Positions 7,946 to 19,652 of a stretch of 64,000 nucleotides of DNA are shown in pieces. Source of the DNA: Escherichia phage vB_EcoM_UP17. The DNA lies in the sequence record LR746137; one strand, 5' to 3'. Position numbers and translations under genes: made by a program. Below the pieces are notes generated by a model, which worked only from the letters and a program-made list of their open reading frames with translations, did no database searches and was not told the origin of the DNA. Positions within the stretch are counted from its first letter, which is position 1; every line of letters begins with the position of its first letter.

Positions 7946-8671
7946 TTACTTGTTAATAATACCTGCAATATTAGGTTTGACAAAGGTTGATGGTTTCATG
8001 ATCTTACCTTTATCATCAAAGAACACATACACTTTCTGTTTTTCATTATAAACAGCATGAACACCAGTGTATGCCCCTTCTGGACGATTGGCATTTCGTT
8101 CTTCAATTGCAGCGCATTCTTGTGCAATGGCTGAATCGATATCCGAAGTTTTCCAAGTTTTCAGCAACTGTTGTTTAGTTGGATACTTGGAATCATTACT
8201 TTTCAATACCTCTTTAATAACTTTCTTTTCTGGATATTTTGAACGGATTAGGGTGTCACGAGACATACGCATAATACCAGCAGCCATTAGTGCCATTTGA
8301 ACTGGCTCTGTAAATGTTTGTTCCAAAGCATCAAAATCAGTATACACAGTTGGAGTAAAAACATCGCCTACAGCATAATCCAAGAAATTCATCGTATGTT
8401 CTTCACCAAAGAACATGTAAGTCAGATAACTTGATACTACAAAAATATCCGCCGCTGCATCCAAGAGTTCTACATGATCGTTTACTTTCGCGGCTGTTTC
8501 ATACTCTTTAAGCTCTTCACGAACGAACCCGATTTGGGACATAAATAGCTCTTGAGTGAATTCAGGTTGTTCACCACCTCGTGCTTTGGCATTCCAATCA
8601 ATTACGTGCTTTGCTGCATTTTTGAAAAATTCAGTATCGAATTTAATATCTTTAAAAAAATTCTCGATCAT
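7946..8671 (-). CDS. hypothetical protein, possible MazG-like NTP pyrophosphohydrolase
   Basis: REELKEYETAAKVNDHVELLDAAADIF gives an EExxE...DxxxD pattern like all-alpha NTP-PPases; weak. Confidence 0.3.
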   Translation of the reverse strand: MIENFFKDIKFDTEFFKNAAKHVIDWNAKARGGEQPEFTQELFMSQIGFVREELKEYETAAKVNDHVELLDAAADIFVVSSYLTYMFFGEEHTMNFLDYAVGDVFTPTVYTDFDALEQTFTEPVQMALMAAGIMRMSRDTLIRSKYPEKKVIKEVLKSNDSKYPTKQQLLKTWKTSDIDSAIAQECAAIEERNANRPEGAYTGVHAVYNEKQKVYVFFDDKGKIMKPSTFVKPNIAGIINK

Positions 8672-8680
8672 TATAACTCC

Positions 8681-8863
8681 TTATTTAAAATAGCTTTCTA
8701 GAAAGTTGCTAATATTTACTACAGACTCACCCATGTAAATCCCTGCGAAACCGAAAACAAGCATACGTGGAATATTGAAATACCATTTATCCGCCGGAAA
8801 AGATGCCAGAATTACAATAGCAATTGCTATCAACATCATAAGAATTGTTGCTAAAATTATCAT
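8681..8863 (-). CDS. small membrane protein (60 aa)
   Basis: Internal ATG at 8863 behind GGAGG; hydrophobic MIILATILMMLIAIAIVILASF; the longer track ORF lacks an RBS. Confidence 0.35.
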   Translation of the reverse strand: MIILATILMMLIAIAIVILASFPADKWYFNIPRMLVFGFAGIYMGESVVNISNFLESYFK

Positions 8864-9054
8864 AAAAATGCCTCCAGGTATTTTGCACAATGATAAGCTA
8901 AGAAACAAGAAACTACCGCATACCCAACTCCAGACATACATGAATCAATCGCAACACATACGGTTCTTTTCTTTGAGTTCTTAGGAAAGTTTTCCGAAGC
9001 ATTCATACAATAAAAAGAAAGCACACTGAAAACGATTAAAATGGCTAAGAACAT
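8860..9054 (-). CDS. small membrane protein (64 aa)
   Basis: Strong RBS TAAGGAGG before ATG; MFLAILIVFSVLSFY transmembrane segment; ATGA overlap with the next gene. Confidence 0.4.
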   Translation of the reverse strand: MFLAILIVFSVLSFYCMNASENFPKNSKKRTVCVAIDSCMSGVGYAVVSCFLAYHCAKYLEAFL

Positions 9055-9063
9055 TTTTCCTCC

Positions 9064-10191
9064 TTACTCTGCTGGTTCCCAAGTGCCTGGGATCATTTCT
9101 CGAATACGAACACCAACAGGTTTTGTTGGAATACCTTCATCTGAAAATTCTTCATACTCTATTTCAACGAACTGATTAATCAAGGTAGAGGCATTCTCTG
9201 CTTTACGATAATTGATAGTCTCATGAGCATCTTTACGCATTAAGAATTCGACTACTTTACCATTTTCCATCTCACCTGTCAACACTCCATCGCCATTTTT
9301 ATCACTTTTTGAATTTGTTACTTTAACTTCAAGCGTATGACGAGGCTTACGTTTAATAACATCATAAGAACGTTTATCAAATTCGTAAACTCCGTGAGCA
9401 TTACGATATACTACACCTTCAGCTTTCTCAAGTAAAGCTTTTTCATAGAAAGCGTCAAACTGTTCTTGGTTTTCAATATACTCTGTATGAACTACACAAA
9501 TAAGCTCGTCAAGACCATAATCTTCAACTACTGCCTTAAGAGCAGTAAGAGCATCAACACGTTTTTCAAACGGTAGACCTGGAACTGGAATATCGTATAC
9601 GTAATAATTCAGCAAAGGTGTATTTGCATTATGCTTCTTCCAGGCACTGTTAATTTGTTGCAGACTAAGGACACCTAACCCAGCAAACACTTCACCATCA
9701 AGAGGATGACCAACAACTTCACTAATAAAGTTTGGAATACCTTTCCAATGAGGTGGCAGGTTATACACTTCCCCAGCTTTTGATAAACACTCCCCTTTCA
9801 TGTTAATCATAGAACGTAACCCGTTCAGTTTGTATTGTGCATAACCAGGGAACACAACCCTTTCAGGATAATCTTTATAATCCTGGCATTTCATTGGTGT
9901 GGAAGGAACATGGTTTTCAGCTTCTTCTTTTGTTTTATAATAGCCATTCTTTAACTGTTTTGTCCATTTGGCAAAAGCTTCAAGTTCAGCTTGTTCTTCC
10001 GGTGTTGTTTCATTGGAACGACCAATGTTTTTTGCTTCTGCTGTATAAGATTTTTCTGTGATCTTTCCACCTACTCTTCCATGAGCTACAGTAACAACTG
10101 CACCATCTGTATATACTGTCCACTGTTTAAGTTTTCCTTTTGAATCTTTACCATACAGTGTTTGATTTGTTTGTTGCATTAGTCCTCCCAT
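9064..10191 (-). CDS. ATP-dependent DNA ligase-like nucleotidyltransferase
   Basis: Ordered motifs YKLNGLR (motif I, KxNG variant), LDGEVF (III), EGVVYR (IV), VIKRK (V) with ligase-like spacing plus C-terminal OB-sized region. Confidence 0.6.
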   Translation of the reverse strand: MGGLMQQTNQTLYGKDSKGKLKQWTVYTDGAVVTVAHGRVGGKITEKSYTAEAKNIGRSNETTPEEQAELEAFAKWTKQLKNGYYKTKEEAENHVPSTPMKCQDYKDYPERVVFPGYAQYKLNGLRSMINMKGECLSKAGEVYNLPPHWKGIPNFISEVVGHPLDGEVFAGLGVLSLQQINSAWKKHNANTPLLNYYVYDIPVPGLPFEKRVDALTALKAVVEDYGLDELICVVHTEYIENQEQFDAFYEKALLEKAEGVVYRNAHGVYEFDKRSYDVIKRKPRHTLEVKVTNSKSDKNGDGVLTGEMENGKVVEFLMRKDAHETINYRKAENASTLINQFVEIEYEEFSDEGIPTKPVGVRIREMIPGTWEPAE

Positions 10192-10400
10192 TTAAAAACT
10201 GAAATTTTCAATCTGTTACACACTTCATCCAAATCTGCGTCGAGTAACGTTGTAGATGTTGCCAACATATAATCAATGCTTGTGAAACCTTGCCCTTTGG
10301 CATAGTCAAGCATATCTTCATACATATCTTCAAGATCACCGTCATCAAAAGTAGCTAGAAAATCCTCGTCCCCGCTACGAACATAAAATGCAGTACTCAT
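10179..10400 (-). CDS. hypothetical acidic protein (73 aa)
   Basis: ORF from track, overlapping neighbours' start/stop. Confidence 0.35.
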   Translation of the reverse strand: MSTAFYVRSGDEDFLATFDDGDLEDMYEDMLDYAKGQGFTSIDYMLATSTTLLDADLDEVCNRLKISVFKWED

Positions 10401-10585
10401 TCATCTTCATCCCAAGATTCAAAAGCACAGCAGTCATCGGTTTCTATAGTACCAGTACGTCCACAAGAAAGGCAAGTGATTTTATCACCGTAGAATACAT
10501 AATTCTCGTCTCCGTTGGTATTCACGGAAATCTGATCACTGCCACAGGGACATTCCAACCAAGGCACAATGATATCTTTCTTCAT
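10397..10585 (-). CDS. zinc-ribbon protein (62 aa)
   Basis: CPCGSD ... CLSCGRTG four-Cys arrangement. Confidence 0.4.
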   Translation of the reverse strand: MKKDIIVPWLECPCGSDQISVNTNGDENYVFYGDKITCLSCGRTGTIETDDCCAFESWDEDE

Positions 10586-10594
10586 GTTTTCTCC

Positions 10595-10747
10595 TTAACC
10601 TTTAGGTGTGCAGAATCCACGATCAAATACATTCTTACGGATGCCTTCTGCTAAAGCCATCTCACAAGCCCCTTGCGATCCGAATTCTTGTGTATAATCA
10701 TTACTACCATGACTCCAAAGAGCAAACAAAATATAGATTGTTGCCAT
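10595..10747 (-). CDS. small ORF (50 aa), not in the >=60 aa track
   Basis: ATG behind GGAGGA; hand translation MATIYILFALWSHGSNDYTQEFGSQGACEMALAEGIRKNVFDRGFCTPKG. Confidence 0.3.
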   Translation of the reverse strand: MATIYILFALWSHGSNDYTQEFGSQGACEMALAEGIRKNVFDRGFCTPKG

Positions 10748-10756
10748 TTTTCCTCC

Positions 10757-11083
10757 TTAAGCATTCAGTTCGTTGTTGAGTTCGTAAATCTCTTCTTGAA
10801 GAGAATCGATCTCTTCCTCCAAACGGGAGATCTCTTCTTTTAGATATACCATTTCAGATTCTTTCTCTTCTAACTCATTTTCAAATTTTACTTTATTCGC
10901 CTCATTTTCATAATGGAGTTCAGCGTAATCATCGCGCATTTGTTCAATAAGATGAATCAGAGACAAGATGTAATTATCTCCCGTTTCATCACGCCACTCT
11001 TCACCGTGGCGGAGAACGGTAATTCGTCCAGTATCTTCATCTAAAATTGTCTCATATTTACGATCATCTGTATAAATCTGCAT
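10757..11083 (-). CDS. hypothetical protein with C-terminal coiled coil (108 aa)
   Basis: C-terminal EEISRLEEEIDSLQEEIYELNNEL heptad-like acidic repeats. Confidence 0.4.
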   Translation of the reverse strand: MQIYTDDRKYETILDEDTGRITVLRHGEEWRDETGDNYILSLIHLIEQMRDDYAELHYENEANKVKFENELEEKESEMVYLKEEISRLEEEIDSLQEEIYELNNELNA

Positions 11084-11092
11084 TATTTCTCC

Positions 11093-11497
11093 TTATTGAA
11101 GTTTAAGTGAACCACGAAGACGCTTCTCTTGCTGATCACGAATATATTGTGGAACCTCGTGAATTGAATCATTACCGTGCCTATTTTCAACAACTAAAGA
11201 GATAACTTGATAACCAAACTCTTCAGCAAGAGCTAGATAAGGTTTAAGTTCTTTCTCTGTGGTTGAAGTGTTAGAAACAATAATCTTGTTAAGATTAGAT
11301 GCCATAGCATCACGAACAATACTCTGACACCATGCGTGTGCTTTACCTACATTTTCTGGCTTCCAATCGTAAACACCACTTTCTGTGTAATGATATTGAT
11401 CTGCCTCACAGATAGGCCAATAACCTTCAGAAATAATTTCTGCTACTGTAGATTTACCAGCACCTGAAACGCCACGTAAAATGATAAGTTGTTTCAT
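11093..11497 (-). CDS. P-loop kinase, polynucleotide 5'-kinase-like
   Basis: ILRGVSGAGKSTVAE Walker A; small 134-aa kinase abutting the ligase-like gene (stop/start 11498/11497). Confidence 0.5.
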   Translation of the reverse strand: MKQLIILRGVSGAGKSTVAEIISEGYWPICEADQYHYTESGVYDWKPENVGKAHAWCQSIVRDAMASNLNKIIVSNTSTTEKELKPYLALAEEFGYQVISLVVENRHGNDSIHEVPQYIRDQQEKRLRGSLKLQ

Positions 11498-12430
11498 TTA
11501 TCCTCCAAAGAAGTTTTCGATTTTTTCACGTCGCTCTTGCTGATTTAAAGCAGCCCATTGAGTCTTCGTAAAATTATTTCGAATCCATTCTAACAAAGCG
11601 TAATATTCTTCGTCAACAATTTGTTTGGCATTTTTTGGATTATCCCAAATCAGATCCCACTTTTTATCTCCACCGCGCATAAGAAACTTCTTAGTAAGAT
11701 AGTATGGTGACTTAATCTTTAAGAGTAAGTTAAACGGATAGTTTGTTTCACGAACTACAAACCCTTCGTGTTTACAATCTTTAGACATTTCAACAACATC
11801 TGAAAACTTAACCATTGGATGAACTTCAGGACGCTTAAATTTGGTGACAGAAGCAATTCCATCAAGAGCACCTTCAGGTAACATAAAACTTGTCCCATCA
11901 GGGTTTTGAATTCTGGCACCAATTAAGTATGCACCTGGTTCTTCTTCGACAATATGCGGATCAGAAGGATCACAGATTTCAAAAAGGAAAGTTGCTTTTG
12001 CACTCTCTGTCCATTTGATGAAGTGTTCTATGTCATCACACTCTGAAACAATATGATTCTTTGCAATACTTGCAAAATCTGATTCAAGGCTTCCTGTTGT
12101 CGATACAATAAGTTGACCTTTATATACACCTACAGAGGCCATAAAACCATTTACTTTACGAACCACATCTACAAATTCATCCGCTGGTAGATCTGTGCCA
12201 TTCTCAAAACGATTAAAAATCTTAGTGAAAGGCCAAATAACAACATTATCATCAGCGTCAACAACGATTCCGCGACATTCTAGAAGACGAGAATCAATGT
12301 TCCATAAGTTATCCCAGAAAACTTTGTTCTTATACTTAAGAACAGATAGACCAGAATACTCTCCTTCTTTATATGTTTTCTTATGAACTAAACCTTTTTC
12401 AACCAAATCGTCGCAATTAAATTTAGCCAC
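11498..12430 (-). CDS. RNA ligase-like covalent nucleotidyltransferase
   Basis: RKVNGF (motif I, KxNG), FEICDP (III-like), EGFVVRE (IV), LLKIKSPYY (V) in order; flanked by a phosphoesterase and a kinase. Confidence 0.5.
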   Translation of the reverse strand: MAKFNCDDLVEKGLVHKKTYKEGEYSGLSVLKYKNKVFWDNLWNIDSRLLECRGIVVDADDNVVIWPFTKIFNRFENGTDLPADEFVDVVRKVNGFMASVGVYKGQLIVSTTGSLESDFASIAKNHIVSECDDIEHFIKWTESAKATFLFEICDPSDPHIVEEEPGAYLIGARIQNPDGTSFMLPEGALDGIASVTKFKRPEVHPMVKFSDVVEMSKDCKHEGFVVRETNYPFNLLLKIKSPYYLTKKFLMRGGDKKWDLIWDNPKNAKQIVDEEYYALLEWIRNNFTKTQWAALNQQERREKIENFFGG

Positions 12431-12431
12431 A

Positions 12432-12983
12432 TTACTCTCCTTTGATTATTTTGTGATGGTCTACAGTCACGATATCTCGTTTACTCATCATAGAAATTAT
12501 CTCATCAAAATGCAAGATTTTTCCGTGTGCATCCCAACCCACATCTAACATTTTGCCATAAGCTTCATCAGGGAAAGATCCGTGGGAATGCCCGTGTAGC
12601 ATGATTGATCCACGACCTTGTTTATTCCAGGAGGCCATAGGGTAATGACTTAAGACGAAGAACAGCTTCTGATATTTCACTTCATCATAATAAACCACTT
12701 CGCCATACTCTGCAAGCACTTCTCGGTGTTTGCTGTAATCATGGTTCCCAACACAGTAAGTAATATCTCCTTGGAGACGGGAAGCAATCTTACGGGTATC
12801 TTCTTCAGTCCCGAAACAGAAGTCGCCCAAATGCCACATCTTGACACCTGGACTCGTAGCGCATTTATTCCATGCTTCGATCAGTGCTTCTGTCATGTGG
12901 TCCATATCTTCCCACGGTCGATATTCAGGAGCAAACTCTCGTATACGTTTGTGCATAAAATGCAAATCACTTGTAATAAACAT
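12432..12983 (-). CDS. calcineurin-like metallophosphoesterase
   Basis: SDLHF (DxH), GDFCFG (GD), GNHDY (GNHD/E), HGHSH (GHxH) in canonical order. Confidence 0.6.
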   Translation of the reverse strand: MFITSDLHFMHKRIREFAPEYRPWEDMDHMTEALIEAWNKCATSPGVKMWHLGDFCFGTEEDTRKIASRLQGDITYCVGNHDYSKHREVLAEYGEVVYYDEVKYQKLFFVLSHYPMASWNKQGRGSIMLHGHSHGSFPDEAYGKMLDVGWDAHGKILHFDEIISMMSKRDIVTVDHHKIIKGE

Positions 12984-13339
12984 TAGTATAATCCCTCGCT
13001 AAATAGGTCACGATCATGACCATTACGTTCGTAGTCAATCTGGTCTGCGTGTTTTGCAATAATGTATGCATCTTCACGACTCCACCAATTGTAGTATTGA
13101 TCAATAAAACCTTGATTGTTTGGAAGACAATGCACTTTATCAAGCACACCTGCTTCTTTCAATATATTCAATTGTGCTGATAATACAGGATTTGCATGTC
13201 GAACACAAGGAATAATTAACTCTTCACCATTATTCAAAATATATTTATTCGCAGCACAGACGATAACACGTTGCGCATAATGACCCTCACCAATCCAGGC
13301 AAGAGGTTGGTAACAAATATTGTTTTCAATACCACTCAT
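12983..13339 (-). CDS. hypothetical protein (118 aa)
   Basis: ORF with GGAGG RBS, first gene of the phosphoesterase-ligase-kinase run; no motif recognised. Confidence 0.4.
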   Translation of the reverse strand: MSGIENNICYQPLAWIGEGHYAQRVIVCAANKYILNNGEELIIPCVRHANPVLSAQLNILKEAGVLDKVHCLPNNQGFIDQYYNWWSREDAYIIAKHADQIDYERNGHDRDLFSEGLY

Positions 13340-13359
13340 TGTTTCCTAATCCTCCTCTC

Positions 13360-13491
13360 TTAAGTTATCCTCGAAAAAAAACTAGTATCTGGAAGTAAAA
13401 GATCATTACTTGTGTCGGGCCAATCCTCTTCTTCTCGGTAGATAAAGTAACCTTCGTCCTCTTCTTGTTCCGACCAAACCGAATGATGCAT
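13360..13491 (-). CDS. small acidic ORF (43 aa), not in track
   Basis: ATG behind GGAGAG; hand translation MHHSVWSEQEEDEGYFIYREEEDWPDTSNDLLLPDTSFFSRIT. Confidence 0.25.
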   Translation of the reverse strand: MHHSVWSEQEEDEGYFIYREEEDWPDTSNDLLLPDTSFFSRIT

Positions 13492-13500
13492 GTTCTCTCC

Positions 13501-13857
13501 TTAATAGTGCACACGAATCATTTTAATACCATAACGCAGCATGGATTCTTTTGCAAGCATGAATTTATCCCCAGCGGAGGGATTAGAAGTATGCACGAAA
13601 ATGGTAGGTGAACCAAAGCAAGGTTTACCAAACGCCAGAAGTTCTTCCAGGCACAGGAAAACATCATACCCATCTTGGTCAGAATATTCACCCAAATCGT
13701 TGTCAAAATGCCACTCGTCTACAAAACGATAACCCTTCTGCACCTCATTCATGTAGCGAGAGGCAAGAAGTTCCTGTGATGTTTTAAACCAGATTGCATC
13801 TGGACAACCATAATCTTTTGGATCACGTAAATCATCAAGCCAAATAATAGTACCCAT
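13501..13857 (-). CDS. hypothetical protein with receiver-like pattern (118 aa)
   Basis: MGTIIWLDDLRDP ... DGYDVFLCLEEL ... PTIFVHTSNP loosely recalls a CheY-like alternation; unverified. Confidence 0.35.
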   Translation of the reverse strand: MGTIIWLDDLRDPKDYGCPDAIWFKTSQELLASRYMNEVQKGYRFVDEWHFDNDLGEYSDQDGYDVFLCLEELLAFGKPCFGSPTIFVHTSNPSAGDKFMLAKESMLRYGIKMIRVHY

Positions 13858-16152: not shown

Positions 16153-16380
16153 TCTAGCCTCCTAAACGCGTCTCTGACGCACTTTTTATATATAAGATGA
16201 TAAATCACCTTACCTAGTAAGTAAGCTTGCTCTACGAGTCTCTTATGAAGCTTATGTTATAGGCTATACTATTGCTACCTGTTTAAGCAAGGTTTTTGCA
16301 CACAGAAAATAATTTTAATAAAACTCTTGACTTTTGTGTTCGAAGTATGCTACCCTAGAAATCTATTAACGAGCGCAGCG

Positions 16381-16405
16381 AGTTAAGGTTTAAGGTTTAA
16401 GGTTG
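16381..16405. repeat. short tandem repeat (TAAGGTT x3)
   Basis: GTTAAGGTTTAAGGTTTAAGGTTG read directly; followed by TGTACTC repeated three times (16419-16445). Confidence 0.6.
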
Positions 16406-16445
16406 TTGATGTAGTACTCTGTACTCAAGTACTGTACTCCGTACT

Positions 16446-16491
16446 AGATCTAATAATTATTAAATATTAATAATAAATAATTATTAGATCT
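16446..16491. repeat. perfect 16-bp inverted repeat with 14-bp AT spacer
   Basis: AGATCTAATAATTATT (16446-16461) and its exact reverse complement AATAATTATTAGATCT (16476-16491). Confidence 0.75.
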
Positions 16492-16640
16492 AACAGACAG
16501 GTACAGTGTATCAGAACTGGTACGTACAGATCAACTTCTATCAATTAAAAATAAAATAATAAATTATTATAAATAATACTTGATCTATAGATTAGTATGA
16601 AGTACAGTACGGAACATCTTAACAAGAATGGAGGTGTGCA

Positions 16641-16826
16641 ATGATTAGTGAGAATCCGTGCAAATGGCATCATGTGCCTATTAAAGATTGTATGTCTTGT
16701 AATCCACGTTCTATTTATAACATTGCATCTTATGACGATGACAATGTGTTAGACGATGATGAAGGCTGGGAGGATTTAGATTGGACTGGTTATGAAACCA
16801 AAAAGGATAAAATTATTCCTAGTTGA
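16641..16826 (+). CDS. small Cys-rich protein (61 aa)
   Basis: ATG behind GGAGGTG; PCKWHH...CMSCNP Cys/His cluster. Confidence 0.4.
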   Translation: MISENPCKWHHVPIKDCMSCNPRSIYNIASYDDDNVLDDDEGWEDLDWTGYETKKDKIIPS

Positions 16827-16863
16827 CTTAAGATATCCTTCGTGCTAAACTAGAAGTGAGGAG

Positions 16864-17115
16864 ATGCCGATCACTCCCCATTTGGGGTTCGAAGGATATA
16901 TGCAAAATAGTTTTTATTTTAGGTGCCGTGCTTGTAATAGGCATTTGACAAACCACTCCAGACGTGATAAAAATGGAGTCATCAAGGAATCAGACCTTTG
17001 TTCTATCTGCACAGGTTTGGCTTTTGATGATAGTCCCGAAAGGGTTTATCAGCATCAATATATAACAGACGTTCTCGTGTCAAACTTGGTAGAGGACGAA
17101 CAACTAACAGATTAG
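16864..17115 (+). CDS. small zinc-finger-like protein (83 aa)
   Basis: ATG behind GAGGAG; CRACNRH ... CSICTG. Confidence 0.4.
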   Translation: MPITPHLGFEGYMQNSFYFRCRACNRHLTNHSRRDKNGVIKESDLCSICTGLAFDDSPERVYQHQYITDVLVSNLVEDEQLTD

Positions 17116-17123
17116 GAGGAACA

Positions 17124-17372
17124 ATGTCTCTATTAGAAAAACACGTGTTTGAAGATGGTAACGGCAATGCAGTTTTTCTTTTCCATCCAGAAAAATACAC
17201 ATCTGAAAACAATGGTACAACTTCTATTGTAATCACTAAAGATGTTAAAGTTATTGATTTCTTGGCTCTGATGAGAGAAATGGATCTTGAAATTAATACT
17301 TTTAACGCAGAAGCTTTGGTTGTTGCTCTTCTGGAAAAGAAAGACAGTGAAGAAGTAGCAGAATATGCTTAA
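17124..17372 (+). CDS. hypothetical protein (82 aa)
   Basis: ATG behind TAGGAGGA. Confidence 0.4.
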   Translation: MSLLEKHVFEDGNGNAVFLFHPEKYTSENNGTTSIVITKDVKVIDFLALMREMDLEINTFNAEALVVALLEKKDSEEVAEYA

Positions 17373-17379
17373 ATAACTA

Positions 17380-17409
17380 TTGACAAACGTATCCTTCATA
17401 TGTTAGGAT
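17380..17409 (+). promoter_or_regulatory. sigma70-like promoter (TTGACA, TATGTTAGGAT)
   Basis: ACTATTGACAA followed 13 nt later by TATGTTAGGAT; same composite motif recurs upstream of other tRNA groups. Confidence 0.4.
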
Positions 17410-17619
17410 ACGTTCATCAAGTGTGGTAACAGGGTCGTTGACTTTTGTTAAGAGGGGCTTGCACTGCGGATAGTGTTAGAGACTACTTCTTCAGAGGTTA
17501 GCTACCAAAGAGGAAAAGGAATAGTCTCGGCTCAAGAACTTTTACGCTGAAAGTTGGGCTTGGTCTTAGAGAATGTAGCGGTTCTCTACAATCGTTAGCG
17601 TCTCTGTTACCACATTTAC

Positions 17620-17691
17620 GGCCCTGTAGCTCAATGGGAGAGCTGTCGGCTCATAACCGATAGGTAGCTGGATCGAAACCAGCCAGGGCCA
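17620..17691 (+). tRNA. tRNA-Met (anticodon CAT)
   Basis: Hand-folded cloverleaf: acceptor GGCCCTG/CAGGGCC, anticodon loop CTCATAA, T-arm GCTGG-ATCGAAA-CCAGC, encoded CCA. Confidence 0.7.
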
Positions 17692-17696
17692 CCAAC

Positions 17697-17768
17697 GTCT
17701 TTATGGTGTAATGGATAGCACAGGAGTCTTCTAAACTCTTAGTCAAGGTTCGATTCCTTGTAAAGACA
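17697..17768 (+). tRNA. tRNA-Arg (anticodon TCT)
   Basis: Acceptor GTCTTTA/TAAAGAC, anticodon stem GGAGT/ACTCT with loop CTTCTAA, T-arm CAAGG-TTCGATT-CCTTG, CCA encoded. Confidence 0.7.
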
Positions 17769-17967
17769 CCAGAACATTTTAACATGAATTAGCTCAAGTG
17801 ATTTGAACCCACTACTGATCATAGTGGCAGAGAATGAGGCAAGTATGTCAGACATTGTAAACAAAGGCCACGGTTACATTAGAAGATATAAATGCTCGAA
17901 GAGCACCGTTCGCTGAGAACGGGGGTTGGTGGAGTCACCATTCATGGTAAAATGTTTTAAAAAACTA

Positions 17968-17996
17968 TTGACAACTAACATTATTTTATGTTAGAT
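17968..17996 (+). promoter_or_regulatory. sigma70-like promoter (TTGACA, TATGTTAGAT)
   Basis: AAAACTATTGACAAC followed 13 nt later by TATGTTAGATTATAAG, 10 nt before tRNA-Ser. Confidence 0.45.
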
Positions 17997-18005
17997 TATA
18001 AGTAT

Positions 18006-18093
18006 GGAAGGGCAAATCGACGTGGTGACGAAAACGGTCTTGAAAACCGCCGAGCTTGAAAGAGCCTTGGGAGTTCGACTCTCCCTCCTTCCG
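18006..18093 (+). tRNA. tRNA-Ser (anticodon TGA), class II
   Basis: Acceptor GGAAGGG/TCCTTCC, anticodon loop CTTGAAA, long variable arm, T-arm GGGAG-TTCGACT-CTCCC, CCA encoded. Confidence 0.7.
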
Positions 18094-18101
18094 CCAGATT
18101 A

Positions 18102-18184
18102 GGTAGATTGGTGAAATGGTAGCCACGACAGTTTGCTAAACTGTAGTCGGAAACGGCGTGTAGGTTCGAGTCCTACATCTACCG
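18102..18184 (+). tRNA. tRNA-Ser (anticodon GCT), class II
   Basis: Acceptor GGTAGAT/ATCTACC, anticodon stem ACAGT/ACTGT with loop TTGCTAA, long variable arm, T-arm GTAGG-TTCGAGT-CCTAC. Confidence 0.7.
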
Positions 18185-18314
18185 CCAAGTTGTTTTTAAT
18201 GTAGCGTTGCGGCTACTTACTTTAGCAGAGTAAATCTTCGGCAAGTGGCGGTAACCACTTTACCGATACCGCATAGTCAGTAAGGCGAATACTGGCTACT
18301 TTAAAAACAATTTT

Positions 18315-18395
18315 GTGAGATTGGCAGAGTGGTCGATTGCGGGGGACTGTAAATCCCTTCTGAAAGGCGCGGTGGTTCGAATCCATCATCTCACA
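18315..18395 (+). tRNA. tRNA-Tyr (anticodon GTA), class II
   Basis: Acceptor GTGAGAT/ATCTCAC, anticodon stem GGGGA/TCCCT with loop CTGTAAA, long variable arm, T-arm GGTGG-TTCGAAT-CCATC. Confidence 0.7.
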
Positions 18396-18404
18396 CCAAA
18401 TTAA

Positions 18405-18487
18405 GATGAGTTGGCTGAATGGTTTAAGCGGCGGACTGTTAATCCGTGTTCGAAAGAACGATATAGGTTCAAATCCTATACTCATCG
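18405..18487 (+). tRNA. atypical class II tRNA, anticodon loop CTGTTAA (reads as GTT, Asn) with 15-nt variable arm
   Basis: Acceptor GATGAGT/ACTCATC, anticodon stem GCGGA/TCCGT, variable region GTTCGAAAGAACGAT, T-arm ATAGG-TTCAAAT-CCTAT; isotype assignment uncertain. Confidence 0.5.
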
Positions 18488-18497
18488 CCAGAATTAT

Positions 18498-18575
18498 GGA
18501 CTTGTAGAGTTAAGGTAAAACCTCCAGTCGCCAAGAGGCTTCTGGAATTGCAGGTATCGAATCCTGCCGAGTCCC
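18498..18575 (+). pseudogene. degenerate tRNA-like element
   Basis: Good 7-bp acceptor GGACTTG/CGAGTCC and T-arm GCAGG...CCTGC, but T-loop is 8 nt (TATCGAAT) and no canonical anticodon arm or CCA could be folded. Confidence 0.3.
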
Positions 18576-18581
18576 AGATTT

Positions 18582-18653
18582 GCTCCTATAGTATAATGGC
18601 TATTACAACGGTTTTGTAATCCGTGGATCTCTGTTCGATTCAGAGTGGGAGCA
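18582..18653 (+). tRNA. tRNA-Thr (anticodon TGT)
   Basis: Acceptor GCTCCTA/TGGGAGC, anticodon loop TTTGTAA, T-arm CTCTG-TTCGATT-CAGAG, CCA encoded. Confidence 0.7.
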
Positions 18654-18929
18654 CCAACACAACATTAAGAGCACTGTGATTGATCGTCGTATCCTGTGCA
18701 CAAGGTCTGTTCGAAAGACAGTGTTCTTAGTATTGTGTTGATCACACAAAGAGTCACCTGAAACTTGACCGGAGTAGGGTTGGATGGGGCAAAAGAAGAA
18801 GCGGCTCTCCCATCGACAGCAACGAAGAATAATATTTGACTTTAGTTTTGTATTATTTTAAGTTAGCTTACCGAACGTAGGGCTAGTCACCCAACGGGAT
18901 ACTCGTCACTGTCCCACTCAATAAAACTA

Positions 18930-18959
18930 TTGACAACCAATAGTAAAATGTAGTATAGT
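18930..18959 (+). promoter_or_regulatory. sigma70-like promoter with extended -10 (TTGACA, TGTAGTATAGT)
   Basis: AAAACTATTGACAACC followed 13 nt later by TGTAGTATAGT, 11 nt before tRNA-Gly. Confidence 0.45.
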
Positions 18960-18970
18960 AAAGATGTAGG

Positions 18971-19041
18971 GCGTTCTTGGTGTAGCGGTAGCATTCCGTC
19001 CTTCCAAGTCGGCGGCACGAGTTCGATCCTCGTAGGACGCT
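18971..19041 (+). tRNA. tRNA-Gly (anticodon TCC)
   Basis: Acceptor GCGTTCT/AGGACGC, anticodon loop CTTCCAA, T-arm ACGAG-TTCGATC-CTCGT, CCA encoded. Confidence 0.65.
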
Positions 19042-19142
19042 CCAAATTATTTAATAAAGGGTTGCCAGAAAACTTTCTCTTTTACTCATGGTTTTCTCCT
19101 TCTCTCACACCTCTTCTGGTTGCCCTTCATTAAATGATTTAT

Positions 19143-19215
19143 TGGTTTGTAGTGTAGTCAGGTAGCACACGACACTTTGACTGTCGTAGGTTTGGTTCAA
19201 ATCCAGACAGACCAG
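19143..19215 (+). tRNA. tRNA-Gln (anticodon TTG)
   Basis: U1-A72 acceptor TGGTTTG/CAGACCA (as in enterobacterial tRNA-Gln), anticodon stem CGACA/TGTCG with loop CTTTGAC, T-arm TTTGG-TTCAAAT-CCAGA, CCA encoded. Confidence 0.65.
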
Positions 19216-19223
19216 CCATATAA

Positions 19224-19297
19224 CGGAATTTAGCTCAGTTTGGTAGAGCATACGCTTTGGGAGCGTAGGGTCGCAGGTTCGAATCCTGCAATTCCGA
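19224..19297 (+). tRNA. tRNA-Pro (anticodon TGG)
   Basis: Acceptor CGGAATT/AATTCCG, anticodon stem TACGC/GCGTA with loop TTTGGGA, T-arm GCAGG-TTCGAAT-CCTGC, CCA encoded. Confidence 0.7.
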
Positions 19298-19306
19298 CCA
19301 ATTTAA

Positions 19307-19377
19307 TGTTTCGTAGTTCAATGGTAGAACCCACGACTGATAATCGTGAGACACAAGTTCGATTCTTGTCGAAACAA
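19307..19377 (+). tRNA. tRNA-Ile (anticodon GAT)
   Basis: Acceptor TGTTTCG/CGAAACA, D-stem GTTC/GAAC, anticodon stem CACGA/TCGTG with loop CTGATAA, T-arm ACAAG-TTCGATT-CTTGT, CCA encoded. Confidence 0.65.
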
Positions 19378-19382
19378 CCAGT

Positions 19383-19452
19383 TTCCCGTTAGACTTACAG
19401 GATAAGAGTTCCACAGCTTATTGTGATGCTGGTTCGAATCCAGCACGGGATA
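19383..19452 (+). pseudogene. degenerate tRNA-like element
   Basis: Canonical T-arm GCTGG-TTCGAAT-CCAGC and 6-bp acceptor, but the anticodon region folds as CACAG-CTTA-TTGTG (4-nt loop) and no CCA is encoded. Confidence 0.3.
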
Positions 19453-19458
19453 CATAAT

Positions 19459-19534
19459 AGCGGGATAGAGGAGTCTGGTCGTCCTCGCCAGTTTCATATG
19501 CTGGAGATCATTGGTTCAAATCCAATTCCCGCCT
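19459..19534 (+). tRNA. tRNA with anticodon CAT (Met or lysidine-type Ile2)
   Basis: Acceptor AGCGGGA/TCCCGCC with mismatched 1:72, D-stem GAGG/CCTC, anticodon stem CCAGT/GCTGG with loop TTCATAT, T-arm ATTGG-TTCAAAT-CCAAT, CCA encoded. Confidence 0.6.
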
Positions 19535-19652
19535 CCAAATATCGCTTGCCAGCGGTATCTTTGAAGAACTTGCCTGGTTCCTTCTAAGATGGAGGGGTGC
19601 GACTCCTTAACGCACAATCATAATAAAGCATTTCAAATTAACAGTATTTATT

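Follow-up and report, generated by a model that had tools for sequence, protein, structure and literature searches.

Repair of tRNA by a phage-encoded polynucleotide kinase, phosphatase and Rnl1-type RNA ligase has been textbook knowledge since phage T4, and the fungal and plant enzyme Trl1 heals and seals tRNA ends that carry a 2',3'-cyclic phosphate and a 5'-OH. A phage gene neighborhood of the V5/Mydo type was predicted computationally by Iyer, Burroughs, Anantharaman and Aravind in 2022 (PMC9503650, section 3.7.3), and a kinase-ligase pair of Pakpunavirus was earlier read as tRNA repair (PMC12846349). This study analyzed a window of 64,000 nucleotides (the whole stretch of DNA considered here) from Escherichia phage vB_EcoM_UP17 (LR746137), a virulent, phAPEC8-like coliphage belonging to Phapecoctavirus. 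Within it, three adjoining genes quite probably specify a split RNA end-healing and sealing pathway, most likely one that restores tRNAs cut by anticodon-nuclease-type defenses.

The three co-directional open reading frames described in the earlier note were recovered at exactly the same coordinates, all on the minus strand: a phosphoesterase gene at 12432-12983 (183 aa), an RNA ligase gene at 11498-12430 (310 aa, GTG start) and a kinase gene at 11093-11497 (134 aa). Inspection of the sequence revealed that the TAA stop of the phosphoesterase gene is separated by a single base from the GTG of the ligase gene, with AAAGGAGAG located 5' of the GTG, whereas the kinase ATG directly abuts the TAA stop of the ligase gene (GGAGGATAAATG). 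Upstream, a 118-aa reading frame and the phosphoesterase start share one base (TAATG). These junctions are consistent with coupled translation. The cassette is a tightly packed part of a longer run of leftward genes for replication and nucleotide metabolism, and a scan of 7.5-17.6 kb yielded no signal above shuffled expectation for a private promoter (34 promoter-like sites vs. 30.4 +/- 5.4) or a private terminator (8 terminator-like sites vs. 5.6 +/- 2.6). The earlier interpretation is supported: a role in RNA end healing and sealing is well backed by the predicted families and their linkage, with the caveat that the genes do not form a stand-alone operon. The catalytic motifs that had been quoted for all three proteins are present, nearly all of the quoted residues are invariant in family alignments, and the three family assignments were upheld by the Pfam matches given below for each protein; matches of the cassette proteins to PHROG families had E-values of about 1e-56 to 1e-70.

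By profile and predicted fold, the 11498-12430 product is a short ATP-dependent RNA ligase of the Rnl1/Trl1 type, and it is proposed to carry out the sealing step; the residue predicted to be adenylylated is K92. The protein matches Pfam RNA_lig_T4_1 (PF09511) over profile positions 1-227 with 59.2 bits against a cutoff of 28.3 (E 6.9e-16), and the residues K92-x-N94-G95, E151, E222-G223 and K238-x-K240 are invariant in 42 homologues. The single sequence had no PDB match at E <= 1, and a family profile was therefore needed; the sole PDB match of that profile was T4 Rnl1 (2.9e-10), in an alignment that pairs motifs I, III, IV and V with the KEDG, FEF, EGYV and KIKS segments of the T4 enzyme. 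In its AF2 model (pLDDT 93), the fold is nearer to Rnl1/Trl1 than to Rnl2, Rnl3, DNA ligases or capping enzymes, and the possibility raised earlier of a DNA ligase paralogue or capping enzyme is thus contradicted by both profile and fold. The resemblance to T4 Rnl1 has its bounds: 262 of the 310 residues align to the 374-aa T4 protein at approximately 20% identity, and the score against the NCBIfam T4 RnlA equivalog TIGR02308 is 24.9 bits, below the cutoff of 242. The C-terminal all-helical domain of T4 Rnl1 (about residues 255-374) is implicated in tRNA specificity; the C-terminal helical region of the phage protein, modeled as six short helices between residues 242 and 307, falls some 55 residues short of that length, and tRNA specificity is therefore not to be assumed. 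A literature search for Phapecoctavirus together with RNA ligase returned nothing.

The 12432-12983 product, judged from its motifs and modeled structure, is an intact binuclear metallophosphoesterase of the AQ_1665 type, and its proposed role is RNA 3'-end healing as a 2',3'-cyclic phosphodiesterase and/or 3'-phosphatase. The Pfam Metallophos match (PF00149; 25.4 bits vs. a cutoff of 21.5, E 2.2e-5), the presence of all five metallophosphoesterase motifs (DxH, GD, GNH[D/E], H and GHxH) and a confident AF2 model (pLDDT 95) bear out the earlier reading of the phosphatase as a metallophosphoesterase rather than a HAD-type enzyme. The protein also matches phrog_547 (E 8.7e-56). Across 45 homologues, D6, H8, G53, D54, G79, N80, H81, H113, G131, H132 and H134 are invariant, and D82 of the GNHD motif is present outside this invariant set. 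The nearest solved structure is 1xm7, Aquifex aq_1665 (profile E 6e-22, Foldseek 1e-8), a protein with no assigned function, and the other fold neighbors, MJ0936, Mre11, LpxH and the P. putida ssDNA nuclease MPE, have varied specificities. Membership in the lambda-phosphatase clade, the type found in bacterial Pnkp, was considered and rejected, with lambda phosphatase 1g5b reaching just a Foldseek E of 0.013 and a TM of 0.38, and the NCBIfam search returned no TIGR04075, PrpE or ApaH match. The phosphoesterase subfamily thus differs from that of bacterial Pnkp, although a metallophosphoesterase acting as an RNA 3'-end healer would not be new in principle, because bacterial Pnkp has one.

For the 11093-11497 product, a minimal P-loop polynucleotide 5'-kinase that would heal 5'-OH ends is proposed. 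The protein matches Pfam AAA_33 (2.4e-10), phrog_2071 (2e-56) and phrog_505, annotated as polynucleotide kinase (2.7e-8), and carries the Walker A motif GVSGAGKST at residues 9-17, in which G12, G14 and K15 are invariant. Although the single sequence gave only P-loop-level noise against the PDB, the best match of the kinase profile was Pnkp1 (4xrp, 7.6e-7), followed by the Mucorales Trl1 kinase (9d8a/9drz, 3e-5), T4 Pnk (1ly1/1ltq, about 1e-4, 8e-5) and the CthPnkp kinase (4gp7, 2e-4), with PSTK also among the top matches. Gluconate, adenylate and dNMP kinases matched at 5e-4 or worse and over the P-loop only. Polynucleotide and RNA 5'-kinases being the best profile matches, the caveat in the earlier note that this protein might be a nucleotide kinase was not substantiated. 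In the RDDYR segment of T4 Pnk, the first Asp, which is the catalytic Asp35, is matched by the invariant D33 of the phage kinase. Opposite T4 Arg38, which binds the phosphate of the acceptor, and T4 Asp85, the phage kinase has His36 (at least 90% conserved) and an invariant Asn76, a result that is tentative given the low identity of the alignment.

The association of the three genes extends well beyond this phage. Ligase homologues were found in 688 of 50,697 deposited phage genomes, and in the 80 viral loci examined for gene content (38-88% ligase identity) the flanks contained the kinase in 72 cases and the phosphoesterase in 64. When the viral ligase set was dereplicated at 70% identity into 47 clusters, both partners lay within 1.5 kb of the ligase in 31 clusters (30 of them co-directional) and the phosphoesterase did so in 39; one or both partners were not within that distance in 16, with some loci ending at a contig edge. 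Both MPE-LIG-KIN and KIN-LIG-MPE orders occur across distant phages, where MPE, LIG and KIN denote the phosphoesterase, ligase and kinase genes. A kinase-ligase fusion is present in 2 viral and 16 bacterial clusters, most bacterial homologues being of the fused form, and such single reading frames occur in phages (loci L053-L067) as well as in Moraxella, Neisseriaceae, Cardiobacteriaceae and Pasteurellaceae, usually with the same phosphoesterase gene following; in the cyanobacterium Leptolyngbya PCC 7375, AAA_33, Metallophos and RNA_lig_T4_1 domains are all contained within one 712-aa protein. In 18 bacterial loci the kinase-ligase fusion is preceded by a divergently oriented RtcR gene, the module adjoins RtcR in Moraxella and Neisseriaceae, and a Ro60/TROVE gene sits between RtcR and the fusion in the Alysiella locus. 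The order-permuted synteny, the gene fusions, the RtcR/Ro60 adjacency and the presence of a cREC gene in the same gene string all argue for a functional linkage of the triad, which constitutes the conserved core; cREC, SIR2 and MazG genes were each seen in just 12-17 of 152 loci.

Several neighboring genes bear on this interpretation. The cREC gene (cyclic-phosphate processing receiver-like; 13501-13857, minus strand, 118 aa) matches Pfam PF20274 cREC_REC (4.2e-13, 50 bits, cutoff 27) and is homologous to the ligase-adjacent cREC of Vequintavirus A51.2 (jackhmmer 5.5e-53), and it returned no sequence match in the PDB. Its product is probably an accessory that opens 2',3'-cyclic phosphate ends, as predicted in published work, and it is treated as accessory rather than core because it lies near the ligase in only 13-17 loci. 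Between cREC and the cassette, the gene at 12983-13339 (minus strand), whose stop overlaps the phosphoesterase start, encodes a 118-aa protein of phrog_839 (6.9e-47) with no match in Pfam (E up to 10), NCBIfam or the PDB; outside Phapecoctavirus loci, a single distant phage (L063) has it next to the cassette, and its membership in the module is uncertain. On the other side, 2.4 kb from the cassette, a MazG-like nucleotide pyrophosphohydrolase gene (7946-8671, minus strand; Pfam PRA-PH 2.7e-6) is homologous to that of Vequintavirus A51.2 (2.9e-82); present in 16 of 152 loci, it is a recurrent member of the V5-type neighborhood and is context rather than core. The same holds for the ATP-dependent DNA ligase gene (9064-10191, minus strand; Pfam DNA_ligase_A_M 4.7e-9, phrog_114 4e-74), a frequent but variably placed phage neighbor that occurs in the flanking DNA of 45 of 152 loci. 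Its distance of 1.3 kb from the RNA ligase gene, as given in the earlier note, was verified (0.9 kb from the kinase gene), as was the tRNA cluster, which comprises 11 genes at 17620-19537 on the plus strand (ARAGORN and Rfam), 4.6 kb from the cassette. Of 60 related viral loci, 28 likewise have tRNA genes no more than 8 kb from the ligase gene. Across the whole window, Rfam identified the 11 tRNAs only, with no Y-RNA-like or other ncRNA, and no introns or split genes were predicted among these tRNAs.

Under the favored interpretation, the substrate would be an endoribonuclease break with a 2',3'-cyclic phosphate (or 3'-phosphate) and a 5'-OH. The AQ_1665-type metallophosphoesterase would turn the 3' end into a 3'-OH, possibly aided by the upstream cREC protein opening the cyclic phosphate, and the mini polynucleotide kinase would use ATP to phosphorylate the 5'-OH. 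The ligase, adenylylated on K92, would then transfer AMP to the 5'-phosphate and seal the break. The targets may be host or phage-encoded tRNAs cut by defenses, alongside the tRNA cluster that the phage itself carries, and a counter-defense role of this kind is plausible.

The same gene content can be read in other ways. A purpose in DNA end processing, in which the kinase and phosphoesterase clean 5'-OH/3'-phosphate nicks for the neighboring DNA ligase and the phosphoesterase may be a nuclease like the Lhr-associated MPE/PdeM, is suggested by the DNA ligase gene 0.9 kb downstream and in the flanks of the 45 loci, by the P. putida nuclease among the phosphoesterase fold neighbors and by the fact that T4 Pnkp acts on DNA too. 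The phosphoesterase also weakly matches the NCBIfam DNA-ligase-associated family PdeM, the 'ligase-associated DNA damage response endonuclease' (E 0.004), but at 16 bits against a cutoff of 150. The gene positioned between the two healing enzymes, however, is of the Rnl1/Trl1 RNA ligase type and not a DNA ligase, and the DNA ligase gene varies in distance and occurs on either side of the triad. It is found in none of the 68 bacterial loci with the triad or its fusions, where the modules instead adjoin genes for a regulator and a partner of RNA repair, RtcR and Ro60, and DNA end processing is accordingly quite improbable. A main role of the ligase as a tail-fiber attachment factor like T4 gp63, with unrelated neighbors, has in its favor the existing PHROG and GenBank label, 'RNA ligase and tail fiber protein attachment catalyst', a label that is inherited from T4 gp63. 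With its catalytic motifs invariant, its gene among replication and nucleotide-metabolism genes distant from the tail genes, and its bacterial chromosomal homologues fused to a kinase, such a role is extremely improbable.

An RNA function other than counter-defense, such as maturing or mending phage tRNAs, rejoining RNA after a phage-encoded RNase has acted, or general RNA quality control as in RtcR regulons, would involve biochemistry identical to that proposed above. The chromosomal, RtcR-linked bacterial homologues point to stress RNA repair and not to anti-phage conflict, and the tRNA clusters near the cassette, in the window and in the 28 related loci, are in keeping with such a function; no tRNA in the window, on the other hand, is predicted to contain an intron or to be split. 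Counter-defense is the simpler reading in view of the precedent set by T4 and of the many defenses catalogued in E. coli that cleave tRNA (10.64898/2026.07.10.737580), and other RNA processing is considered unlikely. Clearance of nucleotide- or NAD-derived signals is very improbable; under it, immune signals of the cyclic nucleotide or ADP-ribose-derived kind would be broken down by the phosphoesterase and cREC, the kinase would act as a nucleotide kinase and the ligase would belong to a looser 'conflict island'. This proposal draws on the MazG-like gene 2.4 kb away, on the SIR2 genes adjacent in relatives and on work of the Aravind group that ties cREC, MazG and sirtuins to NAD+/ADPr processing and terms the kinase a 'nucleotide kinase' (PMC9503650, PMC7824862). 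The kinase profile, in contrast, is nearer to polynucleotide kinases, the cREC, SIR2 and MazG genes are far less frequent than the conserved triad, and the kinase-ligase and kinase-phosphoesterase-ligase fusions argue that all three activities act on one polymeric substrate.

The module is thus real, widespread and already annotated, and the neighborhood type has been predicted in print, so that its value lies in a variant of a known principle and not in a new principle. A broader proposal, for which we consider the balance even, is that the triad represents a distinct RNA heal-and-seal system common to hundreds of virulent phages (Phapecoctavirus, Vequintavirus, Pakpunavirus and Vibrio, Aeromonas and Acinetobacter phages) and to RtcR/Ro60-controlled bacterial operons, where it would stand in place of RtcB/RtcA. 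The AQ_1665-type enzyme would then be a new class of RNA 2',3'-cyclic-phosphodiesterase/3'-phosphatase, and the phage version would provide broad counter-defense against metal-independent (HEPN/PrrC-type) tRNases. If cleaved tRNA is indeed repaired, the cassette would be a widespread means by which phages counter the tRNA-cutting defenses of bacteria, of which more and more are being described. Such repair would also give a function to the AQ_1665 metallophosphoesterase family, whose one solved structure belongs to a protein with no assigned function, and it would imply that RtcR regulons can take a classical ATP-dependent heal-and-seal route rather than RtcB. Phapecoctavirus, Vequintavirus and Pakpunavirus phages are under characterization as phage-therapy candidates (e.g., PMC12846349), and the cassette they carry could therefore affect their host range.

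Compared with described systems, the cassette shares individual traits with each. The kinase domains of Trl1 (ligase-kinase-CPDase) are among the best matches of the phage kinase; Trl1, however, employs a 2H cyclic phosphodiesterase, leaves a 2'-phosphate and requires Tpt1, and no 2H or Tpt1 gene was found here. Pnkp/Hen1 of Clostridium thermocellum and Pnkp1-Rnl-Hen1 of Capnocytophaga follow the same logic of kinase, metallophosphoesterase and ligase, and cyanobacterial relatives of the phage ligase carry a fused kinase-phosphatase of the Pnkp type (TIGR04075, 180 bits partial). The bacterial Pnkp is nevertheless one polypeptide with an adjacent Hen1 and a phosphatase of the lambda type, whereas the phage has three reading frames and another phosphoesterase type, with no Hen1 or other methyltransferase among the 19 neighboring ORFs scanned. 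Relative to the RtcR-regulated rsr(Ro60)-rtcB-rtcA operons of Proteobacteria, bacterial homologues of the module take the slot downstream of RtcR, and of Ro60 in Alysiella; RtcB itself is an unrelated GTP-dependent 3'-phosphate ligase for which no end healing is required, and the phage cassette is without RtcR and Ro60. With T4 Pnkp and Rnl1, which act against PrrC, the cassette has in common the three chemical steps, the P-loop kinase family and the phage setting, but in T4 the kinase polypeptide also contains the phosphatase, as a HAD (DxDxT) domain, as opposed to a separate binuclear metallophosphoesterase, and the cassette genes are contiguous, unlike those of T4.

The V5/Mydo neighborhood contains a T4-like tRNA ligase, cREC, a small kinase, a MazG-like pyrophosphatase and a calcineurin-like phosphoesterase, all homologous to genes of the window, whose ligase is 48% identical to that of Vequintavirus. 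In the window these five components lie within 7946-13857 and correspond to Vequintavirus A51.2 genes, and a tRNA cluster and an ATP-dependent DNA ligase gene are near in both. V5/Mydo is centered on an adjacent SIR2 gene, whereas small ORFs occupy the space between kinase and DNA ligase here; a degenerate sirtuin was sought and rejected, no SIR2 homologue being found by jackhmmer among the window ORFs. SIR2 adjoins the cassette in the related loci L004-L012, L014, L016 and L083, and in Phapecoctavirus WPEC1 a SIR2 homologue is unlinked, about 65 kb away. The gene order differs as well, being co-linear MPE-LIG-KIN in the present phage and MPE-KIN divergent from LIG-cREC-SIR2 in V5. Finally, the phosphoesterase is termed 'occasional' in the V5/Mydo account, whereas in the present survey, with its 39 of 47 clusters, it emerged as a core partner.

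The earlier note's three co-directional, near-contiguous genes are borne out by the ORF listing and the junction sequence. All are on the minus strand: a 183-aa phosphoesterase (12432-12983), a 310-aa RNA ligase with a GTG start (11498-12430) and a 134-aa kinase (11093-11497). The stop codon of an upstream 118-aa ORF shares one base with the phosphoesterase start (TAATG); the phosphoesterase TAA is separated by 1 base from the ligase GTG, with AAAGGAGAG upstream; the ligase TAA lies directly against the kinase ATG (GGAGGATAAATG); and a 9 nt spacer precedes the next ORF. The motifs reported from sequence were all recovered, with almost every quoted residue invariant in alignments of 38-45 homologues per protein (~35-90% identity), and the neighboring DNA ligase (9064-10191) and the cluster of 11 tRNAs (17620-19537, plus strand) were likewise confirmed. 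Escherichia phages of Phapecoctavirus (Stephanstirmvirinae) match the region at 95-98% identity in 126 records, which carry the public labels phosphoesterase/metallophosphatase, (putative) RNA ligase and ATPase. The ligase gene contains a promoter-like site upstream of the kinase (11616-11587, minus strand; TTGACG, 18 nt, TAGAAT, with TG; 10/12); sites of this type are no more numerous in the region than in shuffled sequence. The GC skew reverses near 16 kb, at the boundary between the leftward gene block and a rightward block that starts with the tRNA cluster; the stretch at ~16200-17600 is a divergent control region that has few long ORFs and no Rfam match.

The ligase scored 59 bits against Pfam RNA_lig_T4_1 (cutoff 28.3) and is distant from T4 Rnl1 proper (NCBIfam T4 RnlA, 24.9 bits vs. 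a cutoff of 242). Its single sequence matched no PDB chain; a 42-sequence profile matched T4 Rnl1 alone (2.9e-10), aligning the T4 KEDG, FEF, EGYV and KIKS segments with K92, E151, E222-G223 and K238/K240. Fold comparison of the confident AlphaFold model (pLDDT 93) ranked T4 Rnl1 first (22.6, 262 residues aligned), followed by fungal Trl1 ligase domains (21.7-22.1), Rnl3-type ligases (about 16), Rnl2 (13-14), DNA ligases (11.2 or less), capping enzymes (9.4 or less), the CthPnkp ligase domain (8.1) and the Pnkp1-partner Rnl (7.1), with the same ranking from Foldseek. Because T4 Rnl1 and Trl1 head this ranking, a DNA-ligase paralogue or capping enzyme, the identities that the earlier note named as refuting its reading, is ruled out.

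The kinase matched Pfam AAA_33 (2.4e-10) and the PHROG labels 'ATPase' (2e-56) and 'polynucleotide kinase' (2.7e-8). Against PDB, its 38-sequence profile placed Pnkp1 of the Pnkp1-Rnl-Hen1 complex on top (7.6e-7), then Mucorales Trl1 kinase domains, T4 polynucleotide kinase, the CthPnkp kinase domain and PSTK, with metabolite and nucleotide kinases matching in the P-loop only. The phosphoesterase scored slightly over the Pfam Metallophos threshold, all five metallophosphoesterase motifs are invariant among its homologues, and its model has a pLDDT of 95. Among solved structures only Aquifex AQ_1665 (1xm7; profile E 6e-22, Foldseek 1e-8), a metallophosphoesterase without assigned function, is closely related; the MJ0936 phosphodiesterase, Mre11, LpxH and the P. 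putida nuclease MPE are remoter fold neighbors. Lambda phosphatase, to which the bacterial Pnkp phosphatase is related, matched the model only at E 0.013 (Foldseek). The nearness of AQ_1665 and remoteness of lambda phosphatase place the protein in a subfamily other than the metallophosphoesterase subfamily known in RNA repair, with gene context suggesting a putative 3'-end healer.

Scanning IMG/VR with the ligase alignment yielded 80 viral loci (38-88% identity). When their six-frame ORFs were searched iteratively, 72 of these loci proved to have the kinase and 64 the phosphoesterase. Within 3 kb, the order phosphoesterase-ligase-kinase occurs in 28 loci, the same order with the 118-aa ORF (phrog_839) and/or a cyclic-phosphate processing receiver-like protein (cREC) inserted in 9, kinase-ligase-phosphoesterase in 15, and kinase-ligase in 14, of which 12 are a single fused ORF of about 430 aa. 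When the ligases were clustered at 70% identity (47 clusters), the kinase lay within 1.5 kb in 36 clusters, the phosphoesterase in 39 and both in 31 (co-directional in 30 of the 31); several non-conforming clusters are truncated contigs. In INPHARED, 688 of 50,697 deposited records carry the ligase, including Phapecoctavirus, Vequintavirus (about 48% identity), Pakpunavirus (about 37-39%), and Vibrio, Aeromonas and Acinetobacter phages. The phosphoesterase homologue of Pakpunavirus Henu5 (a Pseudomonas phage, NC_073608; L084 3496-4047, plus strand; jackhmmer 2.7e-60) lacks an annotation because two 'hypothetical protein' CDSs on the opposite strand (gp078, gp079) cover most of its span. This may be why the Pakpunavirus paper, reporting a kinase without a 3'-phosphatase domain, mentions no separate phosphatase (PMC12846349). 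In some phage contigs a tmRNA gene (tag AANDANYGDYALAA) is located a few kb from the kinase-ligase fusion (L055 14177-14579, L056 6273-6675, L059 10399-10801), and suppressor-like tRNAs (anticodons CTA, TTA), together with tRNA-like genes whose anticodon loops are irregular, lie near the cassette in related phages (L031 13576-13651, L043 12979-13053, L037 11183-11255, L014 270-367, L032 7893-7967).

A cREC gene absent from the earlier note (13501-13857, minus strand; Pfam PF20274, 4.2e-13) belongs to the same gene string as the triad and begins a further 0.5 kb upstream from the phosphoesterase; it lengthens the cassette and lends support to the RNA-end interpretation. The Aravind group predicted that this domain opens cyclic phosphates and linked it to RNA ligases (PMC7824862, PMC9503650). 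The intervening 118-aa ORF (12983-13339, minus strand) had no match in Pfam, NCBIfam or PDB; apart from Phapecoctavirus, a single distant phage (L063 7151-7441) has a homologue next to its cassette. A MazG-like gene (7946-8671, minus strand) lies 2.4 kb downstream, and a 'phage V5 / Mydo' neighborhood with these components has been described (PMC9503650, section 3.7.3). No SIR2 was found in the window; in Phapecoctavirus WPEC1 a homologue (L153 3995-4810) and the cassette are about 65 kb apart. SIR2 adjoins the cassette in Vequintavirus and 11 metagenomic viral loci (L004-L012, L014, L016), often separating the kinase from the DNA ligase (L004 9724-10497, L083 7271-8032), and the equivalent slot of the window (10179-11083, minus strand) holds four small ORFs of 108, 50, 62 and 73 aa. 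Since cREC, SIR2 and MazG are limited to 12-17 of 152 loci, the triad is the conserved core.

A GTDB genome scan gave 68 bacterial loci. Kinase and ligase form one ~500-aa protein in Moraxella, Kingella, Neisseria, Alysiella, Conchiformibius, Simonsiella, Cardiobacteriaceae and Pasteurellaceae, usually followed by an AQ_1665-type phosphoesterase. In Leptolyngbyaceae cyanobacteria, AAA_33, Metallophos and RNA_lig_T4_1 are joined in a single 712-aa protein (Leptolyngbya sp. PCC 7375, L123 4768-6906; about 30 other cyanobacterial loci likewise), whose kinase-phosphatase part is bacterial Pnkp-like (TIGR04075, 180 bits partial). A divergent RtcR gene (CARF-like RtcR domain plus sigma-54 activator) lies upstream in 18 proteobacterial loci, linked to the fusion and AQ_1665-type phosphoesterase in Moraxella, Neisseriaceae and Cardiobacteriaceae (L130 3593-5176 and 5386-7638; L096 509-7656), and in Alysiella crassa a Ro60/TROVE gene and a 253-aa ORF stand between RtcR and the fusion. 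Enterobacterial RtcR controls the rsr-rtcBA RNA repair operon, and the bacterial loci look like an RtcR regulon with a heal-and-seal module in place of RtcB/RtcA. Through gene context, the RtcR/Ro60 neighbors provide independent evidence that damaged RNA is what the clade acts on.

The T4 Pnkp/Rnl1, CthPnkp and Trl1 pathways are established biochemistry. By analogy, the phosphoesterase, optionally with cREC, would convert a 2',3'-cyclic phosphate or 3'-phosphate end to a 3'-OH, the kinase would phosphorylate the 5'-OH, and the ligase would seal via K92-AMP. As substrates, tRNAs cleaved by metal-independent anticodon nucleases are the most likely, and many E. coli defenses with such nucleases are now known (listed in 10.64898/2026.07.10.737580). 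The window and 28 of 60 related viral loci (a raw count) have tRNA genes close to the cassette, an adjacency that fits a combined 'replace and repair' strategy. Housekeeping RNA processing would use chemistry identical to that of counter-defense and is considered unlikely. Repair of DNA ends together with the neighboring DNA ligase is very unlikely given the RNA-ligase fold, the lack of a DNA ligase in any of the bacterial loci and the RtcR/Ro60 setting, while the gene fusions and the kinase profile make clearance of signal nucleotides highly improbable. A ligase role in tail-fibre assembly, with the annotation carried over from T4 gp63, found nothing in this analysis to support it and is scarcely credible.

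Combined, these results describe a real, well-supported and unsurprising RNA repair cassette. Public records already carry annotations for its genes, the homologous neighborhood has been described computationally, and a Pakpunavirus kinase-ligase pair has already been read as tRNA repair (PMC12846349); no experimental characterization of the cassette was found in the literature. New here are the AQ_1665-type phosphoesterase as a core rather than occasional partner, the permuted gene order and recurrent fusions of the triad, the location of bacterial versions in RtcR/Ro60 loci, and a Phapecoctavirus version without a linked sirtuin. The locus of Vequintavirus A51.2 holds homologues of all the components of the 'phage V5 / Mydo' neighborhood seen in the window, plus SIR2. 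The invariant D33 of the kinase aligns with the first Asp of T4 RDDYR, the catalytic Asp35; at the positions aligned with T4 Arg38 and Asp85 the kinase deviates, having His36 and Asn76. The C-terminal helical region of the ligase (242-307) is shorter than that of T4 Rnl1, and the cyanobacterial protein, combining AAA_33, a Pnkp/PrpE-type metallophosphoesterase and an Rnl1-type ligase, shares the Pnkp architecture but with a ligase from another clade.
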